Shown piece by piece: positions 5,925-36,742 of a stretch of 64,000 nucleotides of DNA. The notes beneath the pieces were generated by a model that saw only the letters and a program-made list of their open reading frames with translations, made no database searches and was not told the DNA's origin. Position 1 is the first letter of the stretch. Every line of letters starts with the position of its first letter. The position numbers and the translations under genes were made by a program. Origin of the DNA: Alphaproteobacteria bacterium (GTDB taxonomy: Bacteria > Pseudomonadota > Alphaproteobacteria > JAGOMX01); the NCBI GenBank assembly GCA_017993335.1, contig JAGOMX010000003.1, positions 790 through 64,789 on the forward strand, read 5' to 3'.

Positions 5925-5928
5925 CCAC

Positions 5929-12347: not shown

Positions 12348-12770
12348 ATGATCTATATCCTTCTCTTACTTTTGATTGTGGTTTATATGTTTATGCGCTG
12401 GCTTGCTGGCGCGGATTCGGCAGCTTTAGCCTCGGCGGTAAAAATTGTTTTATGGACGGCTTTTATTGTGCTGATGTTTATGTTGATTCTCACGGGCAGG
12501 GCTGTTTCGCCTATATTCATACTTCTGATGGTTTTTGCCGGGGTTGCGATAAGAAAATATTTGAAAAAGCCAAGCGGGGATTCTGACCATATGACACGAG
12601 CAGAAGCCCTGAAAATTCTAGATTTGGGAGACTCTCCGACAAAGGCACAAATTATGGATGCGCACAAACGCCTGATGAAAAAAGTTCACCCGGATACGGG
12701 TGGATCTGTTTATTTAGCACAAAAACTTAACGCAGCCAGAGACATGCTAATAAGGGATAAAAATGAATAA
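12348..12770 (+). CDS. Small two-TM membrane protein with a C-terminal J-domain (DnaJ-like co-chaperone, DjlA-like topology)
   Basis: 140 aa with two hydrophobic helices followed by a J-domain (ILDLGDSPTKAQIMDAHKRLMKKVHPDTGGS). Its start abuts the mipZ stop. Confidence 0.65.
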   Translation: MIYILLLLLIVVYMFMRWLAGADSAALASAVKIVLWTAFIVLMFMLILTGRAVSPIFILLMVFAGVAIRKYLKKPSGDSDHMTRAEALKILDLGDSPTKAQIMDAHKRLMKKVHPDTGGSVYLAQKLNAARDMLIRDKNE

Positions 12771-13527
12771 AAAAGAAAAAATAATTGGCATTTTGGGGGG
12801 TATGGGGCCTGAAGCTGGTGTGATGATGCAGCGATACATTAATCAATCGGCCAAGGCTATATTGCATACCAAACATGATGCGGACTTTCCGGATGTATTA
12901 CATTTTTCCATGCCGAAACACTTACCCGATCGAACAAATTTTCTGATTGGTCTTGAGGCCGAGAATCCAGCGATAGAGGCCGCGAAACAAGCTCTGTTTT
13001 TGGCTCATATCGGACAGCAGTTAGGTAAGGACGTTATTGCTTGCGTGGCTTGTGATACATTTCATGCGAGCGCGATCTGGCAGCTTTTCTGCAAAAACAT
13101 TCAGGCGTGCGACAACTTAACTATGGTTCATATGGTGGATGAAACCATCCAAGAGTTGAAAGATTTTTTGGCTCCCCCAGCCAAGATCGCGATTTTTGGC
13201 ACTATTGGGGGGTTAAAAGAAAAAATCTACGAATCCAGATTGGTGCCTCTGGGCTATGAAATTACCCCCCTGACTTTTCATCAACAGCAAGATATTCATA
13301 AGGCTATTTATGATCCTCACAATGGCCTAAAGGCTCATTCCATGGCAACGGATTTTGCCATTAAGCTGGTGGAGAATGTGACCGCATCCTTAAAAGAACA
13401 AAACGTTCAAAAAATTATTTTAGGCTGTACAGAACTTAGCCTGATTATTTCCTCTACCCATGATGAATTATTTTTAGATCCGATGATGACGGTGGCCAAT
13501 AGGTTGGTTCATTTATATGCGGAATAG
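12763..13527 (+). CDS. Asp/Glu racemase family protein (aspartate racemase-like)
   Basis: 254 aa. The N-terminal GILGGMGPEAG and the second catalytic-cysteine region (ILGCTELS) are typical of aspartate racemases. Overlaps the upstream gene by 8 nt. Confidence 0.75.
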   Translation: MNKKEKIIGILGGMGPEAGVMMQRYINQSAKAILHTKHDADFPDVLHFSMPKHLPDRTNFLIGLEAENPAIEAAKQALFLAHIGQQLGKDVIACVACDTFHASAIWQLFCKNIQACDNLTMVHMVDETIQELKDFLAPPAKIAIFGTIGGLKEKIYESRLVPLGYEITPLTFHQQQDIHKAIYDPHNGLKAHSMATDFAIKLVENVTASLKEQNVQKIILGCTELSLIISSTHDELFLDPMMTVANRLVHLYAE

Positions 13528-13585: not shown

Positions 13586-15811
13586 TTAAGGCTGAGCGAC
13601 GAAAACATGCTCAATGACGCCTAGGTTGTTTTGTAGTAAGGCTATGCCAGTAGGTGTAAGTTGGTCTAGGCGTATCAGCGTTTCATATTCAAAAGAATAG
13701 TTGAGTCCGTTGATAAAAAGTTCTGTTGGACCCACTTCTATTCCGCTACTGCCCGAAACCTCTTGAGCACCAGGTGAGCTTGGGTTGCCTATAATACCAG
13801 CACTTGTCATTATTGCAGAAAAGACCTGGCCATCTGAGGTAGATCCGAAATTAAATGCGATCTCAGTTCCATAACGCATGCTAAAGAATAAATTGGTCTC
13901 CACATCATTTGGCATGTACCCGAATCCGAGCTCGATGTAAGTATTGCTAGCATCCCCACCTAAAAGAATGCTTTGCAAGAATGACACATCCCCTGGATTA
14001 AGCGTGCCGGTTAGGTTTTCAAAAACTGTCTGTACCATTATGTTATTTAAGTCGCTTATCGCCCTCGCATCGCTATAGGTTTTTGCATCTATTACATTTG
14101 TTACTACATCTGGTGCTGTGCCTTCGGATAAAAAGACATCGCTCAAACGACTTAACGGTGGAGGAACATCCGTGACCGTTAAGGTGAATGTATCCATGGC
14201 GGTTGCGCCGGCTCCATCTGTTACGATCACATCAATCGCATAAGGCGTATCGGCAGCAACCGTTGGGGCCGTTCCTGTAATCACGCCGGTAAAAGAATCG
14301 ATGCTCAACCAAGATGGAACCGAAGACCCCAGTGCATAAGTGAGTACATTACCGGTATCTATATCGGATGCAGCGACAGCAAAACTAATAGCTGTGCCCT
14401 CGTCATAGATTTTATCTGTAACGGCCGTAATAATCGGTGCGTCGTTCGTTCCAACCACGCGCAAAGTCAGGTCTCCTGTGCTTGAAGCGCCATATTCGTC
14501 CATTGCCATAATAGGTACTTGGAGTTCAAGTGTTTGTCCTGCAGCTAAGTAATTGTAGGATGGATGGCTCCGGTCAAAGCTAGCCGTGCCGTTGGGATTA
14601 ATGATCAATCCATCCGGTAAAGGACCCATAGGGGTATAGGTTAAGATAGCGCCATCATCTATATCACTAGCCATAAATGACAAATTAAATGCGAAGACAC
14701 CATCGCCTTCGATGAGTGGTGCAATGAGTGCACTTACGACCACTGGTGCATCGTTGGCGCCCATTATTTCAACTCTGATATTCGCGGTGCTCGTGGCTCC
14801 GTGTTCATCGGTTACCATATATTGGGTGGTAACAATCATCGTCTGACCTTGAGCCAAATGATCGTAAGCGGGGTTTGAAGAATCAAAGGTATAGGTGCCA
14901 TCCGCATGAATGACAATACCAGCTGCGGCTACGCCGACAGCGCTATAGGTGAGTACGGCTCCATCATCCGCATCGCTTGTGGCTGGGATTAGGGTTCCGT
15001 TGACAATGCCACCGCCTTCAAAAAACAATGTTGTGAATACGTTAAGAGCTTTTGGCGCATCGTTGGTGCCCACCAAAGTAATCGTTAAGGCTTTTGTGGC
15101 ATCAACCCCACCATTGCCATCGCTGACAGTAAAGGGAATCGTCAACACCAGGGTAGCGCCAGCGGCTAGATGGTTATAAGAGGTGTGTGTGGCATCAAAA
15201 GTATAGCTGCCATTAGGATTCAGAACAAAACCCGCCACAACTGAACTGGTGCTAAAGGTAAGCGTGTCGCCCACGTTGGGATCTACGGCGACCAACTGGC
15301 CAGAAATGGCTGCATCGCCTTCATTAATGTCGAGGGTAGCATTCACCGCGACAGGTGCCTGATTCACAGGACCCTCAATGACGATCTGAATGTTCTCGAT
15401 GTTCACAACGCGTAAATCTATATAGGAAACATAATCTTGAAAGTTAAAGACCGTCTTTTTATTCCAGGTGCTAAAGGCTGTTAGGGCGGCCTGTAAATCT
15501 GCAGCTTGTTGCGCAGTAACCACTAACCGGATTGTGTCGGAGCCTCTTTCCCCATCGTAAAAATCATAAGTGCAGTTATTAAGGTCTATGTTTTCTGTGA
15601 CTTTATGGATGAATATGTCATTGCCATTACCGCCAAGAATAATGTCATCTCCGCTGCCGCCGTCGATAGTATCACTACCATTGCCCGCAAGAATTAAATC
15701 GCTACCGCCACCACCATTAATGAGGTCATCACCATTGCCCGCTAAAATAATATCAGAGCCCGAACCACCCGTTAACGTATTATCACCATTACCACCAACC
15801 AATATTGCCAT
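13586..15811 (-). CDS. Large secreted RTX-type Ca-binding repeat protein with multiple cadherin-like/VCBS-type domains (putative adhesin)
   Basis: 741 aa. The N-terminus carries ~6 GGxGxDxUx nonapeptide repeats (GGSGSDIILAGNGDDLINGGGGSDLILAGNGSD...). These are followed by ≥5 ~100-aa repeats, each ending ...VxGTNDAP. Confidence 0.8.
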   Translation of the reverse strand: MAILVGGNGDNTLTGGSGSDIILAGNGDDLINGGGGSDLILAGNGSDTIDGGSGDDIILGGNGNDIFIHKVTENIDLNNCTYDFYDGERGSDTIRLVVTAQQAADLQAALTAFSTWNKKTVFNFQDYVSYIDLRVVNIENIQIVIEGPVNQAPVAVNATLDINEGDAAISGQLVAVDPNVGDTLTFSTSSVVAGFVLNPNGSYTFDATHTSYNHLAAGATLVLTIPFTVSDGNGGVDATKALTITLVGTNDAPKALNVFTTLFFEGGGIVNGTLIPATSDADDGAVLTYSAVGVAAAGIVIHADGTYTFDSSNPAYDHLAQGQTMIVTTQYMVTDEHGATSTANIRVEIMGANDAPVVVSALIAPLIEGDGVFAFNLSFMASDIDDGAILTYTPMGPLPDGLIINPNGTASFDRSHPSYNYLAAGQTLELQVPIMAMDEYGASSTGDLTLRVVGTNDAPIITAVTDKIYDEGTAISFAVAASDIDTGNVLTYALGSSVPSWLSIDSFTGVITGTAPTVAADTPYAIDVIVTDGAGATAMDTFTLTVTDVPPPLSRLSDVFLSEGTAPDVVTNVIDAKTYSDARAISDLNNIMVQTVFENLTGTLNPGDVSFLQSILLGGDASNTYIELGFGYMPNDVETNLFFSMRYGTEIAFNFGSTSDGQVFSAIMTSAGIIGNPSSPGAQEVSGSSGIEVGPTELFINGLNYSFEYETLIRLDQLTPTGIALLQNNLGVIEHVFVAQP

Positions 15812-16077: not shown

Positions 16078-16959
16078 ATGAATCGTATTTTTCTTTCTCT
16101 AATGTTCTTGTTTTTGAGCTCATGTGGGTGGGCTCAATCTGAGGTCGCTCCGGCGCCAAGTCCTGAGGATAATCCAGTCGTCTTGCCGGGCAGTTTAACC
16201 TCGCCAGAGATTGAGGCGATTAAAAATGGCGGTGTGTTAAAAATAGCCGTGTTGCGGGAGAATTTACCCCCTTTCTTTTTTAGGAATAAAAAGGATGAAC
16301 TGGAAGGGATTGATATCAGTCTGGCCAAAACCCTTGCTTTAGAGTTAGGTGTGCGGCCGGTTTTTGTGGAGGTGGATAGTTTTGATGCGGTTGTGGAGGA
16401 AGTCTATCAAAAACGTGCGCATATCGGTTTGTCAAAGCTGAGTGTGACCACAAAACGAGCGGAAAAAATCCGATATGTGGGTGGGTATGTCACTTTATCT
16501 AAAGCTTTATTGGTCAATCGATTAGAGTTTAAAAAATTAAGGAATATGGGGGCCAATACACTGGAAGCGGCTTTTAAATTGCCAGGAGTAAAGATTGGGG
16601 TGATTGGGCGTAGCTCCTATGAAACATTTGCACGTATCCTTTTCCCGCTGGCCACGATTAAGAGATACAAAAAGTGGGATGAGCTTGTGGAGGCGACGCT
16701 GAATGGGGAAGTGGTTGCGGCTGTTCGGGATGAATGGGAAATTCGAAAGGCGCTAGATGAAAGGCCTGACTTGCCTCTATATGCAGAGGCTATATTCTTG
16801 AAAAATCAAAACGATCCTATAAAAATTGCTGTGGCATGGGATAGTCTTCAGTTGGGTAATTTTATTGATACTTTTATGTTGCTGAATGAGAAGTACAAAT
16901 TCGACGTCGATAAGCTTCTGAGTACCTATAAGCGGTACAATAAAAATGCAGAGAAATGA
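16078..16959 (+). CDS. Periplasmic solute-binding protein, family 3 (amino-acid-type SBP)
   Basis: 293 aa with a signal peptide and lipobox-like LSSCGW. The SBP_bac_3 fold pattern runs from LKIAVLRENLPPF to IGVIG. Confidence 0.7.
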   Translation: MNRIFLSLMFLFLSSCGWAQSEVAPAPSPEDNPVVLPGSLTSPEIEAIKNGGVLKIAVLRENLPPFFFRNKKDELEGIDISLAKTLALELGVRPVFVEVDSFDAVVEEVYQKRAHIGLSKLSVTTKRAEKIRYVGGYVTLSKALLVNRLEFKKLRNMGANTLEAAFKLPGVKIGVIGRSSYETFARILFPLATIKRYKKWDELVEATLNGEVVAAVRDEWEIRKALDERPDLPLYAEAIFLKNQNDPIKIAVAWDSLQLGNFIDTFMLLNEKYKFDVDKLLSTYKRYNKNAEK

Positions 16960-18281
16960 CATTGATCACAGCCATCCTTCGTAATAAATTTGCTTTTCTA
17001 GGTGGCGCTTTTCTTGGCACATTAATTGGCACGTTTTTCCCCGAAATAGGTCGAAATATGGGGTATGTTAGCGACATTCTGATTGATGTTATGAAGATGT
17101 GCGTTATGCCGATTATTTTAACGTCTATTACGATCAGCTCGGCGCATTTTACAACAGAAAAATCTGGCCAGGCAACGATGCCGATTATTTTGAGCGGATT
17201 TTGTGTTTTATTGATATGCAGTATGATGGGCATGATCGCAGCGGTCTTGTTTCAACCAGGATTTGCCTTGGATACCACGACGAGCCCTTTAATTAAAAAT
17301 GTAGTGGAGGCTTCGGCGCAAAGTACACGTGCAATTAATGAGTCTTTTGATAGCGATTTAACCAGCGGAACCTTGAATATTTTGCTGAGCCTTATACCTA
17401 ATAATATATATGCGGCCTTGGCAGAAAATCGTATTTTGCAGGTTATCAGCTTTGCCATCATTTTGGGCGTATCTTTAGGGCATCATGCAAAAGAAGATGC
17501 AAAAATTCTTGTGCTGATGCAGCAAACACTCGACATATTTTCAAAAATATTCTCTGTCATCGCGTTTATCTTTCCAATCATCATGGTCTGTATTTCCGCC
17601 AAGCATTCCGCGGAGCTGGGGAGTGATATGTTTATCACCATGGGGAAATTTATTCTGGAATTCTATGCGGCCACCACTTTCTTGTTTGTGGTTTTGAGCC
17701 TGATTATGTTTGTGCGCACGAAAACTTCTTTTTCTCAGTGGTATAATATCATCAAAGATCCCTTGATCGTAGCCATCGCCACGCAAAGTAGTGTGGCGTC
17801 TATTCCTACATCCATAAATGCCATGAAGCGATTTAATTACGACCCTAAATTTGTTCAGCTCATTATCCCTTTGGGGTCGCTCATAGGCCGTTATGGCGTT
17901 ATCCTCTATTTTGGCTTTTGTGCAATATTTGCAACGCAAATATATTCGTTAGAATTAAGCTGGAGTGATTATGTGTTGATCATGTTTGTTGCAGTGTTGG
18001 CGGGTGTGTCGACTTCTGGACAATCAAGTACGTTGGGTCTTTCGTCTCTGTCTTTAATTCTCACACCGCTGGGGATACCGTTTGAAAGCATTCAGCCGTT
18101 ACTGATTGCTGTGGATGCGTTTGTAGATCCAGCGAGAAGCTTTACAATTGTGCATACGAGTTGTGTGATTGTATCTTTGGTCGATCAACCAAGGGGTAAG
18201 CCTTTATCTTTAGAAGAAGTGTTTGCTGCGGAACAAGTCCCTATAAAAGCAAGTGGTGGAACGGTTAAGAATGTCGTCTGA
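16956..18281 (+). CDS. Dicarboxylate/amino acid:cation symporter (DAACS, GltP/DctA family)
   Basis: 441 aa with ~8 TM helices plus re-entrant loops. Conserved DAACS segments are present (IDVMKMCVMPIILTSI, QSSVASIPTS, DAFVDPARSFTIVHTS). Overlaps the SBP gene by 4 nt. Confidence 0.85.
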   Translation: MTLITAILRNKFAFLGGAFLGTLIGTFFPEIGRNMGYVSDILIDVMKMCVMPIILTSITISSAHFTTEKSGQATMPIILSGFCVLLICSMMGMIAAVLFQPGFALDTTTSPLIKNVVEASAQSTRAINESFDSDLTSGTLNILLSLIPNNIYAALAENRILQVISFAIILGVSLGHHAKEDAKILVLMQQTLDIFSKIFSVIAFIFPIIMVCISAKHSAELGSDMFITMGKFILEFYAATTFLFVVLSLIMFVRTKTSFSQWYNIIKDPLIVAIATQSSVASIPTSINAMKRFNYDPKFVQLIIPLGSLIGRYGVILYFGFCAIFATQIYSLELSWSDYVLIMFVAVLAGVSTSGQSSTLGLSSLSLILTPLGIPFESIQPLLIAVDAFVDPARSFTIVHTSCVIVSLVDQPRGKPLSLEEVFAAEQVPIKASGGTVKNVV

Positions 18282-18362: not shown

Positions 18363-18596
18363 TTACATTATGCCTAGCAGGCCCAAAAGAGCTTTTACGC
18401 CAGCTACGCCGACTAAAATGTAGACAACTTTAGCGACCACAGTCCCACCACCAAAGATTTTAGCAACCAAGTCTATGCCCAAAAGGCCAAAAAGTCCCCA
18501 GTTGATACCACCCACGATAAGTAGGATCATGAAAATTTTGTCTAACATCATACCAATGTCCATTATTTCACCTATATTTAATGTTAACAAATACAC
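18363..18596 (-). CDS. DUF378-family small membrane protein
   Basis: 77 aa with two TM helices; GGINWGLFGL...GGGTVVAKVVYILVG matches the DUF378 signature. Confidence 0.55.
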   Translation of the reverse strand: MYLLTLNIGEIMDIGMMLDKIFMILLIVGGINWGLFGLLGIDLVAKIFGGGTVVAKVVYILVGVAGVKALLGLLGIM

Positions 18597-18795: not shown

Positions 18796-19743
18796 ATGTT
18801 TAAACGTATTACAATGACGACGGGTGTTTTGGGGATGGCGGTGACTTTGACTGGTTGTCCAAGCCAGACGGATTCGGCCTATCAATCCTCTCACCATAGC
18901 TATTATTCTCATGTTCCCGGGTATGGGCAAAATAGCTATACAAACCACAGTCAGCATTATTCCCAAAATTATTACATGCTCAACCAGAATTTAGCCCATC
19001 AGCAAGAGCAAGAGCGTCAGTATATGAAACAACTGAAGCAAAATAAAAGAATGACAGCGGCACAGAGAAAAATTGCGGAAGACAACTTACGTATGACGCG
19101 CGTTCAATTAGAGGAGAGTCGTGTCCGTTTAGCTGCATTAGAAAACGAAAGACGTGCGCAAGAACAAGCGCAACGGAATCAGAATCAAGCGGCGCGTACC
19201 GCGCAGGTCAATCAAGATGCTCAATTGGCACGCCAGTTACAACAACAAGAAATTCAGGCTTATTATAGGCAGCCGCAACCAGTAGCCAATCCCCATCCTG
19301 CAGCTGCACCTAGTGCGCCGGCTATGCGGGATGTCATGCCTCAGGTACAAGAAAATCCATATCATCGCCCTCCGGCACCAGCGGCAAACCCGGTTCATAA
19401 TCAAGCGTCCGCACCGCCTATGCCTGCTGCACCGCAACCCAATCTGCAAGAAGTTCAGCAAAGGCAAGAAAGGTTGGAGCAAGAAAGACGCGCGCAGCAG
19501 GATTATCAAAGACGGCAAGAAGAGCAAGCCAGGCAACACCAGCAGCAGCTAGCTCAACGTCAGCAAGAGGCCGCAAGAATTGAACAAGAAAATCAAGCCA
19601 GAATGCAACAAGCCATTCAACAGAGCGTAGCTCAACCACAACCACAACCACAAGCAAATGCATTTGAGGCTGAGCTAAAAAAGAAAGTAAAAGAACGTAA
19701 TGAAAGACTAGGCCTCGAGACAGAGCCAGCCGACGTCGAGTAG
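18796..19743 (+). CDS. Gln/Arg/Ala-rich lipoprotein with a long coiled-coil/low-complexity region
   Basis: Start trimmed to MFKRITMTTGVLGMAVTLTGC (signal peptide plus lipobox). The rest is QQ/RR/AQ-rich with heptad-like EQERRAQQ repeats and a poly-Q stretch. No recognisable enzyme domain. Confidence 0.55.
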   Translation: MFKRITMTTGVLGMAVTLTGCPSQTDSAYQSSHHSYYSHVPGYGQNSYTNHSQHYSQNYYMLNQNLAHQQEQERQYMKQLKQNKRMTAAQRKIAEDNLRMTRVQLEESRVRLAALENERRAQEQAQRNQNQAARTAQVNQDAQLARQLQQQEIQAYYRQPQPVANPHPAAAPSAPAMRDVMPQVQENPYHRPPAPAANPVHNQASAPPMPAAPQPNLQEVQQRQERLEQERRAQQDYQRRQEEQARQHQQQLAQRQQEAARIEQENQARMQQAIQQSVAQPQPQPQANAFEAELKKKVKERNERLGLETEPADVE

Positions 19744-19758
19744 AGACTTAACTATTAA

Positions 19759-19794
19759 AAGCGGGAGGCTCGTATGAGCCTCCCGCTTTTTTTA
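19759..19794 (+). terminator. Rho-independent terminator
   Basis: Stem gcgggaggctc / gagcctcccgc with a 4-nt loop, followed by T7. It sits 15 nt after the stop codon. Confidence 0.75.
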
Positions 19795-19863
19795 GGTATG
19801 GCTCCATTAATACAAACTTAAACATATTTTGTTAGAGTTAAGACGTATTCACATGGAGTCAAG

Positions 19864-21393
19864 ATGAACAACCTTTTTATCAACAATATCAAAAAATTTA
19901 GTTCATCTCGGATTTCTGTACAAGGGCAGTCTTATACAGGCGCGCAAATACTACATAAAAAAAACGATGTGGTGAAGTCTCTCTCTGCTTATATTTTCTT
20001 GCCGAATGATCGTGTGGTTCTTGTAGGGGAAGGGGGCTTTGAGTGGCTTTCCTGTTATTTTGCCTTATTAGACTTAAACTTAAAAATTATCCCGATTGAT
20101 GCAGGTTTAGAAACCAAAGTTATTCAAGCAAAAATCAATCAAGCGAGCCCCCGGTATATCCTAAGTCTATCGAAAATGGATTTAGATTTGGGAGGTTTTG
20201 AAGAACATAAACTGGGCGAATCCCTTTATTTTTATCACTGCCAACAGCCGATTGTTCAGCACGAGGATAATGCCTTGATGATGATTGCTTCTTCGGGAAC
20301 GAGTGGCGCAGAAAAATTAATCATGTTGTCGCGGGCAAATATTCAGGCCGTTTTGGATCTTTATGATGAGTTGCTACAAAAAGTCTCCTTTGATTGCGTC
20401 ATGATTTGCCTGCCGATTTCGGCGATATATCCTTTAGCGATTACGTTGGTTTGCTTAAATGCTGGGAAAAAGGTGGTTTTTTGTAATCCTAAAAATGAAA
20501 ACCTCTCTCAAGTGATGATTCGTGAGGAGGTGGAAATTGTTCCCGCCGTTCCTCTAATGCTAGAAATGATTCATAAGGCCATATTTAGTAAAATAGAGAA
20601 TAATCCGTTAAAAAAATGGATTATTCGCCGAATTTTAGATCTCTTTGGATTCATGCGGCGCAGGTGGGCTGTTAATTTAGGGCCTTTTGTCTTAAAGATT
20701 GCGCATAAGCCTTTTGGTGATAAATTGAAATTATTCTTAAGTGGCGGCGCGACATTAAGTGTGAGCACTTTAAAAGATTTTTATAATCTTGGTTTTACCA
20801 TATACGAGGGTTACGGTCTTACGGAAGCGGCTGGATTGGTCACCTATCGCATGGATGATTATTCCGCTTTTGGCACGGTAGGAAAAGTTTCAGATCGTGT
20901 TTTGATGAAAATTTCTGATCAGGATGAAATTCTATTAAAAGGCCCACAGATTTTTTCCGGTTATTTCAATCAACAGAATGAGACCTCATCAGCCTTTGAT
21001 ATGGGGTGGTTTAAAACTGGTGATAAAGGCATGCTTGATGCAAACGGCAATTTGATCGTGAAGGGCCGTATAAAAGATATTATATTTTTATCCGATGAAA
21101 ACGGCTATGCGCCGGAAACTATTGAGGAATACTACAAAGGTATTCCGGGCATAAAAGAATTCATCGTTGTTGGGTGGATTCGAGAAAATACATCTGGTGA
21201 CTATTTAAGTTTAGTCGCTGTTAAAGAAGAGGGTGTGGTCGAATCAAAGGTTTTAGCCGACGTCGAAAGTCATAAAAAACATATTCCTCCACTATTTCAT
21301 ATTCAAGACGTTATTTTTTTGGATGAAATATTGAAAAATAAACTCGGTAAGGTTTGCCGTAACGTTATCAAAGCCAATATAGGGGTAAGGTAA
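19864..21393 (+). CDS. AMP-dependent fatty-acid ligase (acyl-CoA synthetase / FAAL-like), loading enzyme of the NRPS cluster
   Basis: 509 aa with ANL-superfamily cores: SSGTSGAEK (A3), GYGLTEA (A5), FKTGDKG (A7), KGRIKD (A8) and KLGKVCR (A10). Its stop codon is directly followed by the NRPS start. Confidence 0.85.
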   Translation: MNNLFINNIKKFSSSRISVQGQSYTGAQILHKKNDVVKSLSAYIFLPNDRVVLVGEGGFEWLSCYFALLDLNLKIIPIDAGLETKVIQAKINQASPRYILSLSKMDLDLGGFEEHKLGESLYFYHCQQPIVQHEDNALMMIASSGTSGAEKLIMLSRANIQAVLDLYDELLQKVSFDCVMICLPISAIYPLAITLVCLNAGKKVVFCNPKNENLSQVMIREEVEIVPAVPLMLEMIHKAIFSKIENNPLKKWIIRRILDLFGFMRRRWAVNLGPFVLKIAHKPFGDKLKLFLSGGATLSVSTLKDFYNLGFTIYEGYGLTEAAGLVTYRMDDYSAFGTVGKVSDRVLMKISDQDEILLKGPQIFSGYFNQQNETSSAFDMGWFKTGDKGMLDANGNLIVKGRIKDIIFLSDENGYAPETIEEYYKGIPGIKEFIVVGWIRENTSGDYLSLVAVKEEGVVESKVLADVESHKKHIPPLFHIQDVIFLDEILKNKLGKVCRNVIKANIGVR

Positions 21394-24300
21394 ATGTCAC
21401 TGATAAAAAGCGCAAAATTTATCTTTAAAAATCTCGGTAAGTTTTTATCGCAGCAATATGCTTATTCAAGATTTAATTTGCGCCATATGCCGAAAAAAGA
21501 GGATATGTTTAGAGCTTCTAACTGCCAGAAGCGTTTCTATACCCTACAAAGCATGGACGAAAGCAGTGTGGCGTATACGGTGAATGGTGTGGCTACGTAC
21601 ATGGGAAAAATAAATGTAGATGTCTTTCAAAAAGCCATCAATTTAATTACAGAAAAGAATGAAATATTTCGAACGACTTTTGTGCTGACAGAAGAAGGAC
21701 TTATGCAGAAAGTGAACCCTGTTTTTCAGACCACCGTTGGGGTGTATCATCTGGATGACGATTCGGTAGAGGTTGTTGAAAATCTAATGGGAAAAATTAC
21801 GACAGAACCTTTTGATTTGGCGCAATTACCCCTGTTTAGAATCTCACTGATTTTCTTACCTGGTGAACAGGTAAAGCTGCTGACAAATTTTCATCATGCG
21901 ATTTGGGATGCATGGTCTCAATTTAGTTTTTATAAAGAACTCGCGAGGGTCTACAACCAATTAATGCAAGGGGACGACATTAAGCTTGCGGATAAACCTA
22001 TTGACTATAGGCACTATGCTTATGTGGAAGGACAAACCATAGAATCCGGCGATAAAAAGACAATAGCCTATTATTACCAGTACTTGAAAAAATTTGAACC
22101 GATGGATTTTAATTTTATTAAAAGCAAAAACAGTTCAAAAAAGGCACACAATTTCAATGCCTATTTTAGCCATGGAACCGTCAATAATATCAGAAAAAGG
22201 TGTGAGGAATTAAATTGTTCCATGCATGACTTTATGTTGGCATGCTTTTTAATGATGATTTTTAAATACACGCGCAACAATCATGTAGCCTCAATGATTC
22301 CAAGGTTTTCTAGGTTTAATAAAAAGATTCTCAGCGTATATGGCCCTATGTTAAATGCTTTACCGATTATCGTGGATAGCCATGATGATGTGGTGTTTTC
22401 TGATTTTGTGCAATCGGTCAAAACCCAGATACGCACGTTATTTAAATATGATAACATGCCTTACGATTATATTTTAGAGCAAGTACAAAACGAAAAGGAT
22501 GCGCCGTCTATTGGGCCGATTCCTTTATTGTTTAATTATCTGTCTCAGCATTGGTTCAGCGTGGATGATTTTTCTGAATTGGTCTACCTGAAGAATGAAT
22601 TGGTGTCGAAAGAAGTCGACTTTTTGATGGCTTTTTACATTGTCGGGTTTGATCGGAGCAATCAATTGGCTATGAGTGTGACGTATCAAAAAGATAAAAT
22701 CGACTTTAATACAATGAAGATTGTTGTGGATCACTATCGCGCGCTTATACAAAAAGTTTCTAAGGATCCAAGCAAGGCTTTCAAGGATTATGCCCTGGAA
22801 TGTAACGATTTGCCGAACATTCCGAATTATTTATCTTGGCCGAAGTGTCATGCGAGATTCTCTCCGGTTATGAAAAAAATATATGAGAATGCCCTTTCGC
22901 AACCCAATTCAAAAGCGTTGATTACAGGAAATGAGCAGACCTCCTATGGCGAGCTGGCGGATTTAAGCGCATATTATTTTGATCAACTGGAGAGTATAGA
23001 AAAAAATGATGTGGTGGCTATCTCTGGTGTCCGCGATAAACGTTTTTATGCGGCGATGTTAGCGGCTTTATCCGCGGGAGCCACTATTTATATTTTTGAT
23101 CCCAACACGGATAAAAAACTATTGCAGTCTACACTGACACAGATAAATCCAAGATATTGTTTATTGTCCGATACGGCAGATGGTAAATATATCTGGCAAC
23201 TGAAAGAAGTGTTTCATGGGGACGTTACATTTATTTCCTTGGGCGAAAATATAGACCGTGTCCGTATAGAAAATCATCCTATTTTGAACCATGTTGCGCA
23301 CATAAATGAATCGGATCGGGCGTATGTGTGCTCTACGTCTGGTTCAACGGGTGTGCCAAAGATTGTTCAGGTGGCTCACGGTGGTTTATGTCATTTTATT
23401 GAATGGCAGGTCAATCAATTTAAAATTACATCGGACGATACATGCGCACAGCTGACAAATCCTAATTTTGATGTGTGCTACCGGGAAATTTTCACGCCCT
23501 TGTATGCGGGGGGTGTATTAGTTGTTCCGGATTCAGATGATTATCTGACACAAGGTAATTTTTTCCAGTGGCTTATGGATAAAAAAATAACTTTTTTCCA
23601 TACCGTTCCCAGCATTTTAAATTTGCTTTCGGCAGAAATCTCCAATTACGAAGAGTTAGCCTTAACAGAATTGCGTTGGGTTTTTAGTGCTGGAGAGCCC
23701 CTGCATAGTGAATTAATTAAAACAATCCGTAGTCGTGTTTATTATTTTCCGACGCTCGTCAATCTTTATGGTCCTACGGAAACCTGTCTGGCTAAGGCTT
23801 ACTATGTGGTGCCGATGGAATTGAAAGAGGGGGTTCAGCCCGTCGGAAATCCATTGCCCAAGACAGAGATATATGTATTAAATTCCACCGGAACAATTTG
23901 CGGAATGGGAGAAGCAGGCGAGATTCATATCCGTCCTCCCTTTACCGTGTTGGGTTATTTAGATGGTAATCCTGAAAAATTTAAAATCAATCCACATACC
24001 CAAAATGAAACGGATAAAATCTATGCGACGGGTGACTTGGGGTATTGGGATGATAAGGGTCTATTGCACGTCATTGGTCGTCTGGATGATCAGGTGAAAA
24101 TTAATGGTATACGGGTGGAATTAGACGCTATTAAGCAAGCGATCATGAAACACCCAGATGTGCGGATGGCAGCGGTTATTTATGATGCCAATAAACTAAC
24201 CGCATTTTATAGCTTAAAAGAAATGCCTCAAGAAACTCTTCAGAGCAGTATTCAGGCACATACCCTTGATCTATTGCCTCCCCATATGCATCCGAATTCT

Positions 24301-25836
24301 TTTGTCGAGCTGGATGAAATTCCTTTGCTGCCGTCTGGAAAAATAAACAAACGAGCCTTAAAGGCTATGGTTGTTGCCCCGACAGAAGAAGCTCCCATAA
24401 CCTTGCCTGTCACGCAGACGGAAAAGAAGCTCTATGAAATATGGGCTGCCGTGCTGAAAAATGATAAGGTTTCAACAACAGCCCCCCATAAAAACGTTGG
24501 TTTGAATTCTTTACTCGTCATTCAGGTGATTTTAAGTATTAAAAAACACATGAAACTTACGATTAAACCGATCGAATTTGTTCAATATAAAAACTTGAAA
24601 GAAATAGCTCAACTGATCGATAGTCGCGCAGGTGTCGTGCAGGAGGATGAAAGTTTAGTCTCCTTTAAGACGGTTAAAGAATTAAAAGCTCTTGTGCCTG
24701 TTGTGCAAGATCTAGAAAACTTAAAACCGGCGAATCCTGTCCATGCACATATCTTTTTAACAGGAATGCCAGGATTTTTAGGATGTTACTTATTAAGGGA
24801 TCTGTTGCAAACCTACCCGAAGGCAAAGATCTCGATCCTTATTCGTGCCAAAGATATAGATGAAGCAAAATTGCGTATGGAAGAGGCTTTCCAGCGCATG
24901 TCTTATAAGCCCAGTCCTGACGATTGGCAACGTATCGACATCTGCATCGGAGATTTACAGCAAGCTAATTTTGGCTTTACTCAAGAAAATTACCAGAGAC
25001 TGGCTGAAAGTGTGGATAGCATTTATCATGCGGGGGCCTTTGTGAACTTTTTGTATGATTATGAGGCTTTAGAAAAGGCAAATGTCTTTGGTACTCATGA
25101 AGTGATTCGTCTGGCAAGTGCGCATCAAGTTAAGCCTATCAGTTATGTCTCCACAGCGGGTATCTTTCCAGCTCGAAAAGAATTTGTCGACAAGTACATC
25201 CAGGAAGATTTTGATATAGATTTTGGCGACGAGCAACGACTGTATGGTGGGTATGCTCAAACCAAGTGGGTTGCCGAAAAATTGATGCATGGGGCTGCAG
25301 AAAAGGGCATACCTATTTCTGTTTATCGATTGGGCCGTATTGGTGGAGATTCCCAAACAGGTTTTTGGCCGCAGAATGATTTTATTTATTGCTTCTTAAA
25401 AACAGTGCATGATCTATCTTCTATTCCGGATCTACCCTTAAAGATAGATCTTTTGCCTGTAGATCTAGCCTCTAAAATTATAGTGGAGATTGAAAAGGCC
25501 TCGCCTTATCAAAACCGTAGCTATAACTTAATTAATCCGAATAGAATCTCCATCACAGAGATGCAAGGCATATTAAGCAACGGCAATTCGAAACCCAGTA
25601 TTGATCCTTACGTACAATGGCGTCAAAAGATTATTGATAGTTTATCTAGTGATAAACCTGCAGCGCTGGGTGCTTTTGTGGGGCTGTTACCGGAAGAGCA
25701 TACAGCATTGCCGCGATTGCAGTATGATCGTTTGTTTGCGGTAGATAACGTATTAGAGGCCTTACAAGGTACGAATGTGGTCTTTACGGCTATCGACAAG
25801 ACGCTTATCCAAAAGTATTTAAATCCTGATGAATAG
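21394..25836 (+). CDS. Single-module nonribosomal peptide synthetase, domain order C-A-T(PCP)-R (terminal thioester reductase)
   Basis: 1480 aa. The C domain has HHAIWDAWS (HHxxxDxxS). The A domain has YVCSTSGSTGVPK, NLYGPTE, YATGDLGYWD and GRLDDQVKINGIRVEL. The PCP has the LGG(x)S-like motif, matched by ...VGLNSLLVIQ. The C-terminal SDR-type reductase has FLTGMPGFLG (TGxxGxxG) and YAQTK (YxxxK). Confidence 0.9.
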   Translation: MSLIKSAKFIFKNLGKFLSQQYAYSRFNLRHMPKKEDMFRASNCQKRFYTLQSMDESSVAYTVNGVATYMGKINVDVFQKAINLITEKNEIFRTTFVLTEEGLMQKVNPVFQTTVGVYHLDDDSVEVVENLMGKITTEPFDLAQLPLFRISLIFLPGEQVKLLTNFHHAIWDAWSQFSFYKELARVYNQLMQGDDIKLADKPIDYRHYAYVEGQTIESGDKKTIAYYYQYLKKFEPMDFNFIKSKNSSKKAHNFNAYFSHGTVNNIRKRCEELNCSMHDFMLACFLMMIFKYTRNNHVASMIPRFSRFNKKILSVYGPMLNALPIIVDSHDDVVFSDFVQSVKTQIRTLFKYDNMPYDYILEQVQNEKDAPSIGPIPLLFNYLSQHWFSVDDFSELVYLKNELVSKEVDFLMAFYIVGFDRSNQLAMSVTYQKDKIDFNTMKIVVDHYRALIQKVSKDPSKAFKDYALECNDLPNIPNYLSWPKCHARFSPVMKKIYENALSQPNSKALITGNEQTSYGELADLSAYYFDQLESIEKNDVVAISGVRDKRFYAAMLAALSAGATIYIFDPNTDKKLLQSTLTQINPRYCLLSDTADGKYIWQLKEVFHGDVTFISLGENIDRVRIENHPILNHVAHINESDRAYVCSTSGSTGVPKIVQVAHGGLCHFIEWQVNQFKITSDDTCAQLTNPNFDVCYREIFTPLYAGGVLVVPDSDDYLTQGNFFQWLMDKKITFFHTVPSILNLLSAEISNYEELALTELRWVFSAGEPLHSELIKTIRSRVYYFPTLVNLYGPTETCLAKAYYVVPMELKEGVQPVGNPLPKTEIYVLNSTGTICGMGEAGEIHIRPPFTVLGYLDGNPEKFKINPHTQNETDKIYATGDLGYWDDKGLLHVIGRLDDQVKINGIRVELDAIKQAIMKHPDVRMAAVIYDANKLTAFYSLKEMPQETLQSSIQAHTLDLLPPHMHPNSFVELDEIPLLPSGKINKRALKAMVVAPTEEAPITLPVTQTEKKLYEIWAAVLKNDKVSTTAPHKNVGLNSLLVIQVILSIKKHMKLTIKPIEFVQYKNLKEIAQLIDSRAGVVQEDESLVSFKTVKELKALVPVVQDLENLKPANPVHAHIFLTGMPGFLGCYLLRDLLQTYPKAKISILIRAKDIDEAKLRMEEAFQRMSYKPSPDDWQRIDICIGDLQQANFGFTQENYQRLAESVDSIYHAGAFVNFLYDYEALEKANVFGTHEVIRLASAHQVKPISYVSTAGIFPARKEFVDKYIQEDFDIDFGDEQRLYGGYAQTKWVAEKLMHGAAEKGIPISVYRLGRIGGDSQTGFWPQNDFIYCFLKTVHDLSSIPDLPLKIDLLPVDLASKIIVEIEKASPYQNRSYNLINPNRISITEMQGILSNGNSKPSIDPYVQWRQKIIDSLSSDKPAALGAFVGLLPEEHTALPRLQYDRLFAVDNVLEALQGTNVVFTAIDKTLIQKYLNPDE

Positions 25837-26476
25837 CTGGGTAGAGTGTCTCATCGATTTAAATCCTGGCGCACCGCGAGACGTTTTGTGGAAGAGTATA
25901 GATTTGCCGCCGTATTTATCCTTAAGCTACGAACCTCGTCAATCCCAGTTTATTGCTGGCCGTATTTGTGCGGCTCGTGGAATAGAAAAATTGACGGGCC
26001 ATTTAGATATACCCGCCTGGAATGATGATGAAAGCCCTTGTTGGCCAGAAGGCATTGTCGGATCCATCGCCCATACAGATAATCATGCGATAGCTGTGGT
26101 GGGAAGATCTCATGCTTTTACCAGTTTAGGTGTCGATATAGAAAGTTTAGCTGTGGATGAGGCTGTTATTCGATCCATTGAAAGTGAAGTGCTGGTCGGT
26201 GGTGAAATGAATCTATTTTCCTCCATGGACCAAAATACGCATAAACAAAATATGCTTTCGGTTTTTTGTATAAAAGAAGCCGTCTTTAAATGCTTATATC
26301 CTGTGGTTCAGGAGCTATTCGATTTTGACGCCGTGGAGGTTGTAGATCCGGATTTGATGTATGGTAGGAATCAAATACGCATACGAAAAAATTTTTCCCC
26401 CACGTTAAACTTGGAATACCTCAGTTGCCGTGTCCGATTGCAGAATAATCTAGTGTATGTTGTTGTAAATATTTAA
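25829..26476 (+). CDS. 4'-phosphopantetheinyl transferase (Sfp/EntD type)
   Basis: 215 aa. GVDIESL and FCIKEAVFKC (the PPTase (W/F)xxKEAxxK motif). Overlaps the NRPS gene by 8 nt. Confidence 0.8.
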   Translation: MNSWVECLIDLNPGAPRDVLWKSIDLPPYLSLSYEPRQSQFIAGRICAARGIEKLTGHLDIPAWNDDESPCWPEGIVGSIAHTDNHAIAVVGRSHAFTSLGVDIESLAVDEAVIRSIESEVLVGGEMNLFSSMDQNTHKQNMLSVFCIKEAVFKCLYPVVQELFDFDAVEVVDPDLMYGRNQIRIRKNFSPTLNLEYLSCRVRLQNNLVYVVVNI

Positions 26477-26520: not shown

Positions 26521-27006
26521 GTGAGGATAATATATATGGATAACAATGTAAGTGTTTTGCAAAATAATAACGATTCTAGCGTTCGTTATGCTGGTTTCTG
26601 GCTCCGTTTTTCTGCTTCTTTTATAGATGGTCTATTTGTATTGTTTCTTGTTTTATTGATGATGTTCATTGTGGGGTTGCCTATCCTGGCTTCAGGAAAT
26701 GAAAATACTGAACCCAGCGGCGTATTTTCCATTTTTACTGTGATCGTTACGTTTGTCTTTCCCTTTTTATATGAGCCGGTCATGCATAGTTCGAAATACC
26801 AGGCGACGGTCGGCATGATGGCTCTGAACTTAAAGATTGTGGATCTGGAGCATAAGAAGATATCCTTTTGGCGAGCCTTGGGCCGTTATTTAGCAACCAT
26901 TATATCGAGTTTGATACTATATATTGGTTTTATCATGATTGCCTTTACGGAAAAAAAGCAGGGCCTGCATGATATGATCGCTGGCACCCTTGTCATACGT
27001 GAGTAA
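26521..27006 (+). CDS. RDD-family membrane protein
   Basis: 161 aa with 3 TM helices; the RYAGFWLRFSASFIDGL opening is typical of RDD domains. Confidence 0.65.
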   Translation: MRIIYMDNNVSVLQNNNDSSVRYAGFWLRFSASFIDGLFVLFLVLLMMFIVGLPILASGNENTEPSGVFSIFTVIVTFVFPFLYEPVMHSSKYQATVGMMALNLKIVDLEHKKISFWRALGRYLATIISSLILYIGFIMIAFTEKKQGLHDMIAGTLVIRE

Positions 27007-27017
27007 TATAAGAGACC

Positions 27018-27359
27018 TCATTTAAAATAATGAGGGGACAGCATTTTTATCTCCACGGACAGGATCACATCCTGTTCGCTGGGGATTTCTTTTTTTATCA
27101 GCTCCAGCAGCAATTGCCCTGTATGATTCAAAACCTCCGCTGTTCTTCCGGCCATGATTCTGACTTTTACATGGACAAAGGCCTGATCTGATTGACCGTC
27201 GGTGATATAAAATTTATCCAGGCATGAAAATTGTGTTCGACAGCTTGCGCGATCGGCGGGCAAATTATCGACCAGTAGGGTATGTATCGGATCACCTAAC
27301 GCGAGTAATTTTTCAGAATTTTTTAGGTTGGTTGTGTATTCGATGCTGATTTGAGGCAT
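27018..27359 (-). CDS. 5-carboxymethyl-2-hydroxymuconate isomerase-like tautomerase
   Basis: 113 aa. The MPQISIEY N-terminus (catalytic Pro1) and DGQSDQAFVHVKVRIMAGRTAEV...LLELIK align with E. coli HpcD. Confidence 0.75.
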   Translation of the reverse strand: MPQISIEYTTNLKNSEKLLALGDPIHTLLVDNLPADRASCRTQFSCLDKFYITDGQSDQAFVHVKVRIMAGRTAEVLNHTGQLLLELIKKEIPSEQDVILSVEIKMLSPHYFK

Positions 27360-31225: not shown

Positions 31226-32557
31226 TTAATTTTTTGGCACATACATCACGACTTCAATCGGGCGGAGTTCGTTGTCATCGGATATATTGAAGATGTGCAT
31301 TTGCTCGCCCGGGATAATAAAGTTTTCATCCATGGTTGCCTCGAAGAGAATGACGCCTTTAGCCGGGGCTAATTGTAGCTTATCATTTCCAGAGACCATT
31401 TGACGTTCTAGACCTAAAACCCGTGTATCCATAGCGCTCGTTACAAAAGAATCTGTAACAATAACGCAATTCTTAACCCAGTTGGAGAGATCCTGCATGG
31501 ACATACTGTTGGAGGCTTTGGCACCAAGAATGTAGGTTTGTCCCAGCCATTCTTTGCGCAGAAGGAGAGAAAAATCACGACCTTTTTTAACGAAAGGTAC
31601 AACGGCATAGCCTTCTTGGATGCGGTCGATCATTAAGAAGATAAAGTTTACCACCTGATCATAAGTCGCCTCAAGCCTGTCATGATCATAGGCATCAAAA
31701 ATAGGTGGGATCTGTGAGGGGTGTAAGGCCGCTACATGCCCGGCGAGGCCACATAAACTGATGTATAACTGAAAAGGGTGTGCGACTTGAGAGTTAAGGT
31801 TGGCCTCGAACGGGATTAACCCTGTGGATAGGGCGCGCACCGCATCTTCAGCGTCCCTGGTCATATAGCCTTCGGTGCGGCTGAGCATTCGTTCAGAAAG
31901 ATAGGCAACTTTCTCGCGTATGCGTGAGCATATAAATATACATTTTTTACCTAACGCAGAGTTCTTGGTAACCTTTAAAACGGGTGGAATATAATCTTTA
32001 CGTATGTAGGCATTGGATTCCCTTTGTAGGCTCATCAGCGGAAAGCAGGCAAACGTACTCGGTGGTTTTGTTCCCACAAACAACGAGGCATTTGGAACCA
32101 GTCGGGGGATACGAATTTGTCCGGAGCCTGTGTTTTCATCCACCACATCTCGGCCCTCGACAGAGCTAAAACGGGACTCATTATTATTGGCATTTGCACT
32201 GCCGTGGATGTAACGGGGTATGCCTAAATAGATAGTTTGCGGGCCCTTTTCAAAATCACTTTCATAAGGGGTGAGGTCTAAAGAAATGTGCTCGCCTTCA
32301 CTGGCATAGGATGAAATCACCGTTGAATCCGGCATAATGGCTTCAAGACCTGTAATCTGCAGTATGCCGTTTACCAATAAAGAGTCTTCAATTTCCAGAA
32401 AGCGTAAACCCCAGTGATAAGGTGATATTTCCGATATGTGAAAATCTAACAACTCCTGTTGACGGACATCGTTCTGTTGAAAGTGTTGGGGCAGCAATAG
32501 CATGCCTTCATGCCACTGGATTGCGTCTGTTTTCAGTTTAATCACGTTCAACCTCAC
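31226..32557 (-). CDS. tssK: Type VI secretion baseplate protein TssK-like (ImpJ/VasE family)
   Basis: 443 aa. The N-terminal ...IQWHEGMLLLPQHFQQND... is the hallmark TssK opening (compare WxEGMFLxPQHFQQ), and the length matches TssK (~445 aa). Confidence 0.7.
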   Translation of the reverse strand: MRLNVIKLKTDAIQWHEGMLLLPQHFQQNDVRQQELLDFHISEISPYHWGLRFLEIEDSLLVNGILQITGLEAIMPDSTVISSYASEGEHISLDLTPYESDFEKGPQTIYLGIPRYIHGSANANNNESRFSSVEGRDVVDENTGSGQIRIPRLVPNASLFVGTKPPSTFACFPLMSLQRESNAYIRKDYIPPVLKVTKNSALGKKCIFICSRIREKVAYLSERMLSRTEGYMTRDAEDAVRALSTGLIPFEANLNSQVAHPFQLYISLCGLAGHVAALHPSQIPPIFDAYDHDRLEATYDQVVNFIFLMIDRIQEGYAVVPFVKKGRDFSLLLRKEWLGQTYILGAKASNSMSMQDLSNWVKNCVIVTDSFVTSAMDTRVLGLERQMVSGNDKLQLAPAKGVILFEATMDENFIIPGEQMHIFNISDDNELRPIEVVMYVPKN

Positions 32558-36724: not shown

Positions 36725-36742
36725 AAATAAGAGTGTCATTTC

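Follow-up and report, generated by a model that had tools for sequence, protein, structure and literature searches.

What does a short operon make when it encodes its own acyl-activating enzyme, an assembly line of a single module and the enzyme that primes it? The question is raised by positions 19864-26476 of a 64,000-nt stretch of DNA (the window; positions 790 to 64,789 of contig JAGOMX010000003.1, assembly GCA_017993335.1) from an uncultured alphaproteobacterium, where genes for an acyl-activating enzyme of the ANL type, a nonribosomal peptide synthetase (NRPS) and a phosphopantetheinyl transferase (PPTase) follow one another. The NRPS consists of condensation (C), adenylation (A), thiolation (T) and reductase (R) domains, and the three genes very probably specify a functional line in which an amino acid is N-acylated and then reductively released. 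For the product we propose an N-fatty-acyl Asp-derived (or similarly acidic) aldehyde or alcohol, a reading that we consider to stand evenly between right and wrong.

Organization of the operon

In the list of open reading frames (ORFs) the ANL gene (19864-21393, + strand, 509 aa), the NRPS gene (21394-25836, +, 1480 aa) and the PPTase gene (25829-26476, +, 215 aa) occupy exactly the interval in which the first-pass annotation had placed a tight three-gene cluster. The ATG of the NRPS gene directly follows the stop codon of the ANL gene (spacing 0 nt), and the NRPS and PPTase genes overlap (spacing -8 nt). The three translations contain no internal stops, Pfam matches across the three genes have E-values of 1e-8 to 1e-61, and the NRPS is comparable in length with its relatives (1485, 1485 and 1517 aa). 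The same annotation had named a frameshift, loss of Asp235/Lys517 from the A domain or loss of YxxxK from the R domain as signs against a working cluster; the NRPS frame is intact, D693 and K983 stand at the two A-domain positions, the R domain carries YAQTK (Y1287/K1291), and all the catalytic motifs of the cluster are present.

Upstream of the ANL gene, a lipoprotein gene is closed by an intrinsic terminator (19757-19797, +) with a 15-bp perfect stem followed by U7 (-33.3 kcal/mol upon folding, z = -6.9 versus shuffled sequences), so that the operon begins anew at approximately 19800. In a promoter consensus scan the real sequence scored no better than shuffles, and the same scan overlooked this terminator; searches of the window for Rfam families and tRNAs gave no matches. 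At the other end, 59 nt 3' of the PPTase gene, lies a gene for a small membrane protein of the RDD family (26536-27006, +; Pfam RDD 2.7e-26). Its membership in the operon is uncertain: the spacer is AT-rich and holds a possible promoter, and the hairpin after the gene (27016-27035) is common to the convergent gene.

When the window ORFs of at least 60 aa were searched over the whole 64 kb by phmmer with the NRPS, ANL, PPTase, the window T domain and Escherichia coli AcpP as queries, no NRPS, ANL, carrier protein or PPTase was found besides those of the operon. The operon is real, intact and self-contained, and its general kind is already known: acyl activation combined with an acylating C-A-T-R protein and a dedicated PPTase.

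Domains of the NRPS and the PPTase

The NRPS starts with a basic extension of approximately 35 aa (21394-21498, +; KFIxKNLxKxLSQQY), located ahead of the C domain and outside the Pfam Condensation match. This amphipathic segment is kept in all four NRPSs of the family (the window protein and three relatives described below) and may serve as a helix for docking or for membrane binding. It is followed, on the same (+) strand, by the C domain (21499-22794; aa 36-467, Pfam 1.5e-61, active site HHAIWDA), the A domain (22885-24372; aa 498-993, Pfam AMP-binding 2.3e-53 at 498-856 and AMP-binding_C at 915-983), the T domain (24427-24618; Pfam PP-binding 2.6e-8 at aa 1012-1075, GLNSL, attachment serine S1039) and a terminal thioester reductase of the short-chain dehydrogenase/reductase (SDR) type (24748-25824; Pfam NAD_binding_4 8.9e-58 at aa 1122-1363). 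The PP-binding match reaches 34.4 bits (cut-off 20.8) and the thioester-reductase model TIGR01746 reaches 258.5 (cut-off 213.35); the adenylation model TIGR01733 gave 284.6, slightly under its cut-off of 317.4. The core motifs of the A domain are TSGSTGVPK, FDVCYRE, NLYGPTE, YATGDLG, GRLDDQVKINGIRVEL and PSGKINK, with GRLDDQVK counted among them. Both Pfam and NCBIfam thus bear out the C-A-T-R architecture with an SDR-type reductase that had been predicted.

Alignment with the three relatives, at 30-41% identity, revealed that all of the named catalytic residues of the NRPS are invariant. These are H167, H168 and D172 of the C domain, G1036, S1039 and L1040 of the T domain, and, in the R domain, TGMPGFLG, R1151, S1253/T1254 (STAG) and Y1287-x3-K1291. 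The C domain is the first and sole one of the protein, with no upstream module in the window, and it must therefore acylate the tethered amino acid. The closest solved structure to the R domain is that of MxaA (205 bits), ahead of carboxylic acid reductase (92), Nrp of Mycobacterium tuberculosis (89) and AusA (56). The MxaA domain yields a primary alcohol through two reductions, which is no more than a hint of alcohol release by the R domain of the window.

The third gene encodes a PPTase of the Sfp group (EntD/PptT-like), as had been annotated: the protein is two-lobed, with Pfam matches to 4PPT_N (4.8e-15, 55.8 bits) and ACPS (5.8e-11, 42.9 bits), both above cut-off, it carries the motifs GSIAHT, GVDIE and FCIKEAVFK, and among PDB entries it comes closest to EntD (87 bits). 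Since neither the EntD nor the PptT equivalog cut-off of NCBIfam is reached, we regard it as a member of this group and not as an orthologue of EntD or PptT.

Relatives of the gene pair

The database annotation of the window NRPS is 'thioester reductase domain-containing protein'; a separate look-up by exact sequence returned no record. A word-indexed search returned one full-length relative of the NRPS (P0002, 34% identity), and a search with the ANL returned the further ANLs P0073 (38%) and P0074 (35%). The ANL+NRPS pair occurs in three other metagenome loci (L001, L002 and L005), with identities of 30-41% for the NRPS and 33-40% for the ANL. In L001 the ANL gene precedes the NRPS gene, with a 4-nt overlap, and genes for a fatty-acid hydroxylase and a patatin-like phospholipase precede both; the order is the same in L005, where a gene for a 704-aa acyl-CoA-dehydrogenase-like protein comes first. 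The order is reversed (NRPS, then ANL) in L002-L004. The maintenance of the pair across this deep divergence, and in two gene orders, indicates that it forms a functional unit. Among the family loci, PPTase and RDD genes were seen only in the window: no PPTase gene was seen to adjoin the pair in L001, L002 or L005, and the RDD gene is absent from these loci.

Patterns derived from the four-sequence alignment were scanned against one genome per species (185,579 species, GTDB) and against JGI metagenome contigs. These scans returned 160 loci, the best of them at 27-32% identity, among which none with the pocket signature of the family (by regular expression) or with a close ANL (by phmmer) was found; nor was the ANL+NRPS pair found in the 185,579 species-representative genomes. 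When aa 1-1200 of the NRPS were compared with 1.84 billion representatives, the best 150 matches were all giant multi-module synthetases, a result that is uninformative on family size because scores add up over modules. By these searches the family is very rare, and its members have diverged deeply.

Specificity of the A domain

In order to read the specificity pocket, the ten Stachelhaus positions were located by pairwise alignment and by anchoring on the conserved motifs. The code extractor was validated on 323 A domains of the fetched loci, where it recovered the codes that are standard for Gly, Ser, Phe, Asp and His. The pocket (23470-23796, +) comprises D693, V694, R697, H736, F764, A766, L791, L799 and A800, together with K801 (position 332), and the tenth code residue, K983 (position 517; 24340-24342, +), is located downstream of this stretch. 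All four NRPSs of the family have the resulting code, DVRHFALLAK, without a single difference, although their A domains are only 36-44% identical to one another, and this argues for one conserved substrate.

For comparison we used 315 A domains from the 160 non-family loci. The combination of Arg239 and His278 is present in seven of them (in L036, L057, L058, L069, L074, L119 and L160); Lys332, which corresponds to the invariant K801 of the family, is present in five, all inside this set. Two of the seven loci, L057 and L058, are mcyB of Microcystis, the second module of which has the code DARHVGIFVK and shares with the family the four invariant pocket residues D693, R697, H736 and K801. Under the established collinear model of microcystin biosynthesis, McyB module 2 incorporates D-erythro-beta-methyl-iso-Asp or, for the Asp3 variants, iso-Asp. 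In the structure of microcystin, the residue contributed by this module retains a free alpha-carboxylate (PMC2564945). Basic residues on the pocket floor that accommodate a free carboxylate have a precedent in VinN, which takes 3-methyl-Asp as a beta-amino acid via basic residues at positions 330/331 (reviewed in PMC11253843).

By whole-domain score, the A domains closest to that of the window are those of L119 (39% identity, code DVRHFALLA-), L074 (38.5%, DARHFALMIK), L160 (34.7%, DARHLSLMTK) and L036 (34.5%, DVRHLALMAK). All four have Arg239/His278 and three of them Lys332, and in L119 all nine readable code residues are those of the window. Among all 165 loci, genes for Asp/Glu racemases are confined to L074 and L160, and those of the isocitrate-lyase/phosphoenolpyruvate (PEP)-mutase superfamily to L036, L074 and L119; in the layouts examined (L074, L119 and L160) the racemase- or lyase-type genes immediately precede the module. 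This association could represent an unrecognised supply path for methyl-Asp-like building blocks. That the PF13714 genes encode a true PEP mutase, with a role in phosphonate synthesis, was rejected, as they carry the lyase motif EDQxRPRxCGH and not EDKxxxxxNS. The loci concerned, which belong to unrelated NRPS clusters (L074:3905-11101, L119:1132-4862, L036:2779-12962 and L160:9353-15431), come from the cyanobacterium Leptothoe kymatousa, a gammaproteobacterial metagenome-assembled genome (MAG) and JGI contigs.

Judged from its pocket, the domain may well activate an acidic amino acid of the Asp type, a proposal for and against which we find the arguments equally balanced. Loading through the side-chain carboxyl, in the orientation of McyB module 2, would be possible, and we advance it tentatively, as a rather doubtful refinement. 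A neutral proteinogenic amino acid is an unlikely substrate for such a pocket.

Two further features of the window lie upstream of the operon without being part of it. A gene of the aspartate racemase family (12763-13527, +), at a distance of 6.3 kb, scores 110.3 with the asp_race model TIGR00035 (cut-off 93.1) and 106.5 with that of the cysteate racemase CuyB, under the cut-off of 190. It passes the asp_race model, and a MurI identity was ruled out. The gene is a possible supplier of a D-Asp-type substrate. At 1.6 kb, and of interest as context only, are the genes of a solute-binding protein and a DctA/GltP-like dicarboxylate/amino-acid:cation symporter (16078-18281, +; Pfam SBP_bac_3 and SDF), the symporter gene (16956-18281) matching the NCBIfam models of DctA with 136 and of GltP with 109 bits, both sub-cut-off. 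The short contigs of the family loci carry no racemase or methyl-Asp-supply genes.

The acyl-activating enzyme

The ANL matches Pfam AMP-binding with an E-value of 1.9e-35, and its core motifs SSGTSGAEK, YEGYGLTE, FKTGD, GRIKD and NKLGK are kept in all four members of the family. Its nearest relatives after the three family members are fusion proteins of approximately 870 aa that combine AMP-binding, PP-binding and a PlsC-type acyltransferase (P0075-P0080, P0083 and P0085, one of which is from a Legionellales MAG). These fusions look like a single-protein path from free fatty acid to phospholipid. They are followed by hundreds of proteins named long-chain acyl-CoA synthetase (JGI/NCBI), at 26-33% identity. 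The solved relatives of the enzyme are all CoA ligases, the best being the fatty-acyl-CoA synthetase FadD13 of M. tuberculosis; malonyl-, oxalyl- and coumaroyl-CoA ligases are also among the PDB matches. No fatty-acyl-AMP ligase (FAAL) was present among the PDB matches at E<=1e-10 in this comparison at the level of sequence.

The first-pass annotation had described a fatty-acyl-AMP/CoA ligase. A fatty-acid-type enzyme is indeed plausible, but the affinities of the protein are with synthetases of long-chain acyl-CoA and of acyl-carrier type, not with FAALs; it is probably a long-chain fatty acid:CoA or fatty acid:carrier ligase. Its relatives, together with the lipid genes that adjoin the pair in L001 (fatty-acid hydroxylase and patatin) and L005 (acyl-CoA-dehydrogenase-like), make a fatty acid the likeliest substrate, and we lean towards a fatty acid as the predicted acyl donor of the line. 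In the closest outgroup the carrier that is loaded is part of the same protein, and no carrier gene lies near the operon, so the form in which the acyl group is delivered could be acyl-CoA or acyl-ACP on a housekeeping carrier.

Proposed pathway and product

The proposed line would operate in five steps: (i) the EntD-like PPTase can turn the single T domain holo at Ser1039, as its motifs and family scores show, (ii) the ANL would adenylate a fatty acid of medium or long chain length and hand it to CoA or to a carrier encoded elsewhere, a role proposed from homology and neighbouring genes, (iii) the A domain would load an acidic, Asp-type amino acid onto the T domain, as its pocket suggests, (iv) the N-terminal C domain, placed so as to act first and carrying the HHAIWDA motif, would acylate the amine of the tethered amino acid from the presumed donor, and (v) the R domain, the catalytic residues of which are in place, would use NAD(P)H to free the N-acyl amino aldehyde, possibly taking it onward to the alcohol.

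As the pocket (Asp235/Arg239/His278/Lys332) is of the McyB-module-2 class, it may be the side-chain carboxyl that is thioesterified, leaving the alpha-carboxylate free. Beta-carboxyl loading combined with MxaA-like reduction would give an N-fatty-acyl-aspartate-beta-semialdehyde or, after a second reduction, an N-acyl-homoserine, an outcome that we regard as a long shot. If true, it would constitute a LuxI-independent NRPS route to open-ring molecules of the acyl-homoserine-lactone type or to gamma-hydroxy-lactone tautomers; we know of no link so far between NRPSs and the N-acyl aspartate semialdehyde/homoserine class. Small lipo-amino aldehydes and alcohols serve as signals, protease inhibitors and membrane lipids. 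A siderophore reading was ruled out, as the window contains no aryl-acid or carrier genes. The operon is short (6.6 kb) and has its own PPTase, which makes direct expression feasible. For genome mining, Arg239/His278/Lys332 together with the racemase/lyase association may offer a usable rule for the prediction of acidic substrates.

Alternative explanations

Several observations weigh against an acidic amino acid joined to a fatty acyl group, and most of them concern the pocket. The A domain of McyB module 2 scores 449 against that of the window, where the median of the A domains is 404; with a whole-domain score so near the average, the McyB link stands on the pocket residues and on the intermediates L074, L119, L036 and L160. 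Neither of the code strings DVRHFALLAK and DARHVGIFVK had a match in the full texts searched, and a full-text search for 'C-A-T-R' with 'fatty acyl' was likewise without a match. The racemase and transporter genes stand apart from the operon and may have no connection with it, and an isocitrate-lyase-like gene is absent from the window. Moreover, the code agrees at 6 of 10 positions with the EntF-type serine code DVWHFSLVDK, and the closely similar Ser codes DVWHISLVDK and DVWHISLIDK were recovered from the comparison loci. The same line might accordingly load a neutral, serine-like amino acid and release an N-acyl serinal/serinol lipid or a protease-inhibitor-like N-acyl amino aldehyde, which the architecture would fit equally well. 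We consider this unlikely: the shared residues are D235, V236, H278, F299, L322 and K517, whereas the serine-defining Trp239, Ser301 and Asp331 give way to Arg, Ala and Ala, with Lys332 in addition, and the nearest A domains (those of the four intermediates) belong to racemase/lyase-type loci and not to serine modules.

The acyl half of the proposal has points against it as well. The ANL reaches none of the NCBIfam equivalog cut-offs: MenE (o-succinylbenzoate-CoA ligase, 154 bits versus 330) is its top model, the best long-chain fatty-acyl-CoA synthetase model, NF004837, gives 142.7 versus a cut-off of 476, and a malonyl-CoA synthase model is also among the best matches, again sub-cut-off; within the 64-kb window no carrier protein for the acyl group was found. 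An aryl, dicarboxylic or short-chain acid, capping the amino aldehyde in the manner of myxochelin or tilimycin, would agree with the MenE and malonyl-CoA synthase matches, with the malonyl-, oxalyl- and coumaroyl-CoA ligases among the PDB matches and with MxcG as the best model of the whole NRPS. It is nevertheless improbable, as these scores all fall far short of their cut-offs and the matches lie chiefly in the conserved C-terminal half, the nearest non-family relatives in the large databases are the ANL-carrier-PlsC fusions and long-chain acyl-CoA synthetases, and the window is without aryl-acid biosynthesis genes or an aryl carrier, whereas related loci hold lipid genes. The C domain, for its part, had been annotated as a starter type, which is true of its position (first and only C domain) but not of its sequence class. 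A profile of the four family C domains scored 201.7 with BacC and 182.7 with TycC6, versus 118.2 with surfactin synthetase (8f7h) and 67.9 with RzmA (7c1h), and a single-sequence search left this ranking unchanged. TycC6 is of the LCL type and the surfactin synthetase and RzmA domains are starters, BacC being left unassigned, so in this profile comparison, which is not a phylogeny, the C domain resembles the LCL type rather than the starter type, a point against the proposed line that bears on the form of its donor. It would suit the terminal module of a split line that receives its aminoacyl or peptidyl donor from an NRPS encoded elsewhere, with the ANL serving another role. Such an arrangement is very improbable, since there is no other NRPS in the window, nor among the flanking ORFs of L001, L002 and L005 (not all of which were domain-scanned), and since the ANL gene is the only one to adjoin the NRPS gene in every case, in both gene orders. 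Finally, the base composition of the operon is unusual: its G+C of 0.399 (0.442 in the window) is the lowest of any 6.6-kb stretch, or nearly so, and its G+C at third codon positions is 0.38-0.40, versus 0.447 +/- 0.023 in the other genes of the window. The related loci have a G+C of 0.36-0.42, and horizontal acquisition from a lower-GC donor is plausible. That the genes are a decaying, non-functional remnant of such a transfer is hardly credible, however, given full-length frames and catalytic motifs that are intact and invariant with respect to relatives at 30-41% identity. An acylating line that joins a fatty acyl group to an acidic amino acid is the reading that we retain.

Host organism and neighbouring genes

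The first-pass annotation had placed the cluster in an amoeba-associated bacterium with a reduced genome, and this is not supported. The nearest proteins to the DNA polymerase I of the window are from JGI metagenomes (72-77% identity), followed by those of free-living Rhodospirillales-like taxa (Kiloniellaceae, Magnetovibrio and Pelagibius, 58-60%); no names from Holosporales, Rickettsiales or amoeba symbionts are among the matches listed. The window includes a complete run of division and cell-wall genes (260-10542: FtsI, MurE, MurF, MraY, MurD, FtsW and MurG, then a 333-aa leucine-rich-repeat protein on the opposite strand at 9541-10542), although murC was not identified directly after murG, and a MipZ gene is also present.

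Other genes of the window encode a 741-aa RTX/cadherin/Ig-repeat protein (an adhesin; 13586-15811), a homologue of the type VI secretion protein TssK/VasE (31226-32557), a Fic/DUF4172 protein (40563-41678), and an RND efflux adaptor with a 1183-aa permease (35531-40294). This permease matches models of approximately 1010-1050 aa in two separate stretches and appears to carry an insertion. The secretion, leucine-rich-repeat, adhesin, Fic and RND genes are compatible with host interaction, short of proof. Between the transporter genes and the operon are a gene for a 66-aa DUF378 membrane protein (18363-18563, -) and the lipoprotein-like gene mentioned above (18796-19743). The product of the latter has a signal peptide ending in LTGC and a Gln/Pro/Ala-rich, low-complexity, coiled-coil-like body, without any Pfam or NCBIfam match, and the gene ends at the terminator.

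Comparison with known systems

The nearest counterpart in architecture is MxcG, which has the same single-module C-A-T-R order, with N-acylation followed by reductive release, and is the best whole-protein NCBIfam model for the window NRPS (aa 40-1477). The score of 459 with this model (NF038078), versus a cut-off of 2300, indicates that the two are not orthologues. MxcG accepts 2,3-dihydroxybenzoyl (DHB) from an aryl carrier and loads lysine; in contrast, the window lacks DHB genes and an aryl carrier, and its NRPS has a partner ANL of the fatty-acid type and a pocket of the acidic-substrate type. The lipoinitiation NRPSs SrfA-A and RzmA likewise have an N-terminal acylating C domain and a separate acyl-activating enzyme, an acyl-CoA ligase, but the C domain of the window is nearer to the LCL type and release is by an R domain, not by a thioesterase (TE).

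Two further systems resemble the operon in its organization. AB3403 of Acinetobacter baumannii (ABBFA_003403) is a stand-alone single module with a C domain among the better PDB matches to that of the window (59 bits alone, 117 with the profile), but it ends in a TE and the sequence similarity is low. Its operon encodes an acyl-CoA synthetase, an acyl-CoA dehydrogenase, a PPTase and its own carrier protein. In the alpha-aminoadipate reductase Lys2/Lys5 (A-T-R with its PPTase), as is proposed for the window, a carrier-tethered acidic amino acid is reduced by a terminal R domain and a PPTase is dedicated to the line. Lys2, however, belongs to primary metabolism and has neither a C domain nor an acyl partner, and the window NRPS reaches 371.5 bits with its model (TIGR03443; cut-off 1030.1).

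Reductive release and C-domain N-acylation also meet in the ham cluster of fragin and valdiazen, where HamD (A-T-R) reductively releases an aldehyde or alcohol derived from an amino acid and the final compounds have signalling and antifungal roles (PMC5878181). The comparison is one of architecture: HamF is a free-standing starter C domain that acts after release and transamination, and the amino acid is valine-derived. With McyB module 2 the window shares pocket residues Asp235/Arg239/His278/Lys332 and the surrounding motif HFIxW...F...FDxxxRE, whereas the A domains are only 32% identical and McyB module 2 serves for internal elongation and lacks an R domain. A conserved acidic pocket like that of McyB module 2, in a protein that also has an acylating C domain and a terminal R domain, is to our knowledge an uncharacterised combination, and if our reading of the pocket is right, the window NRPS would be the first known to place these two domains around an A domain of the iso-Asp type.

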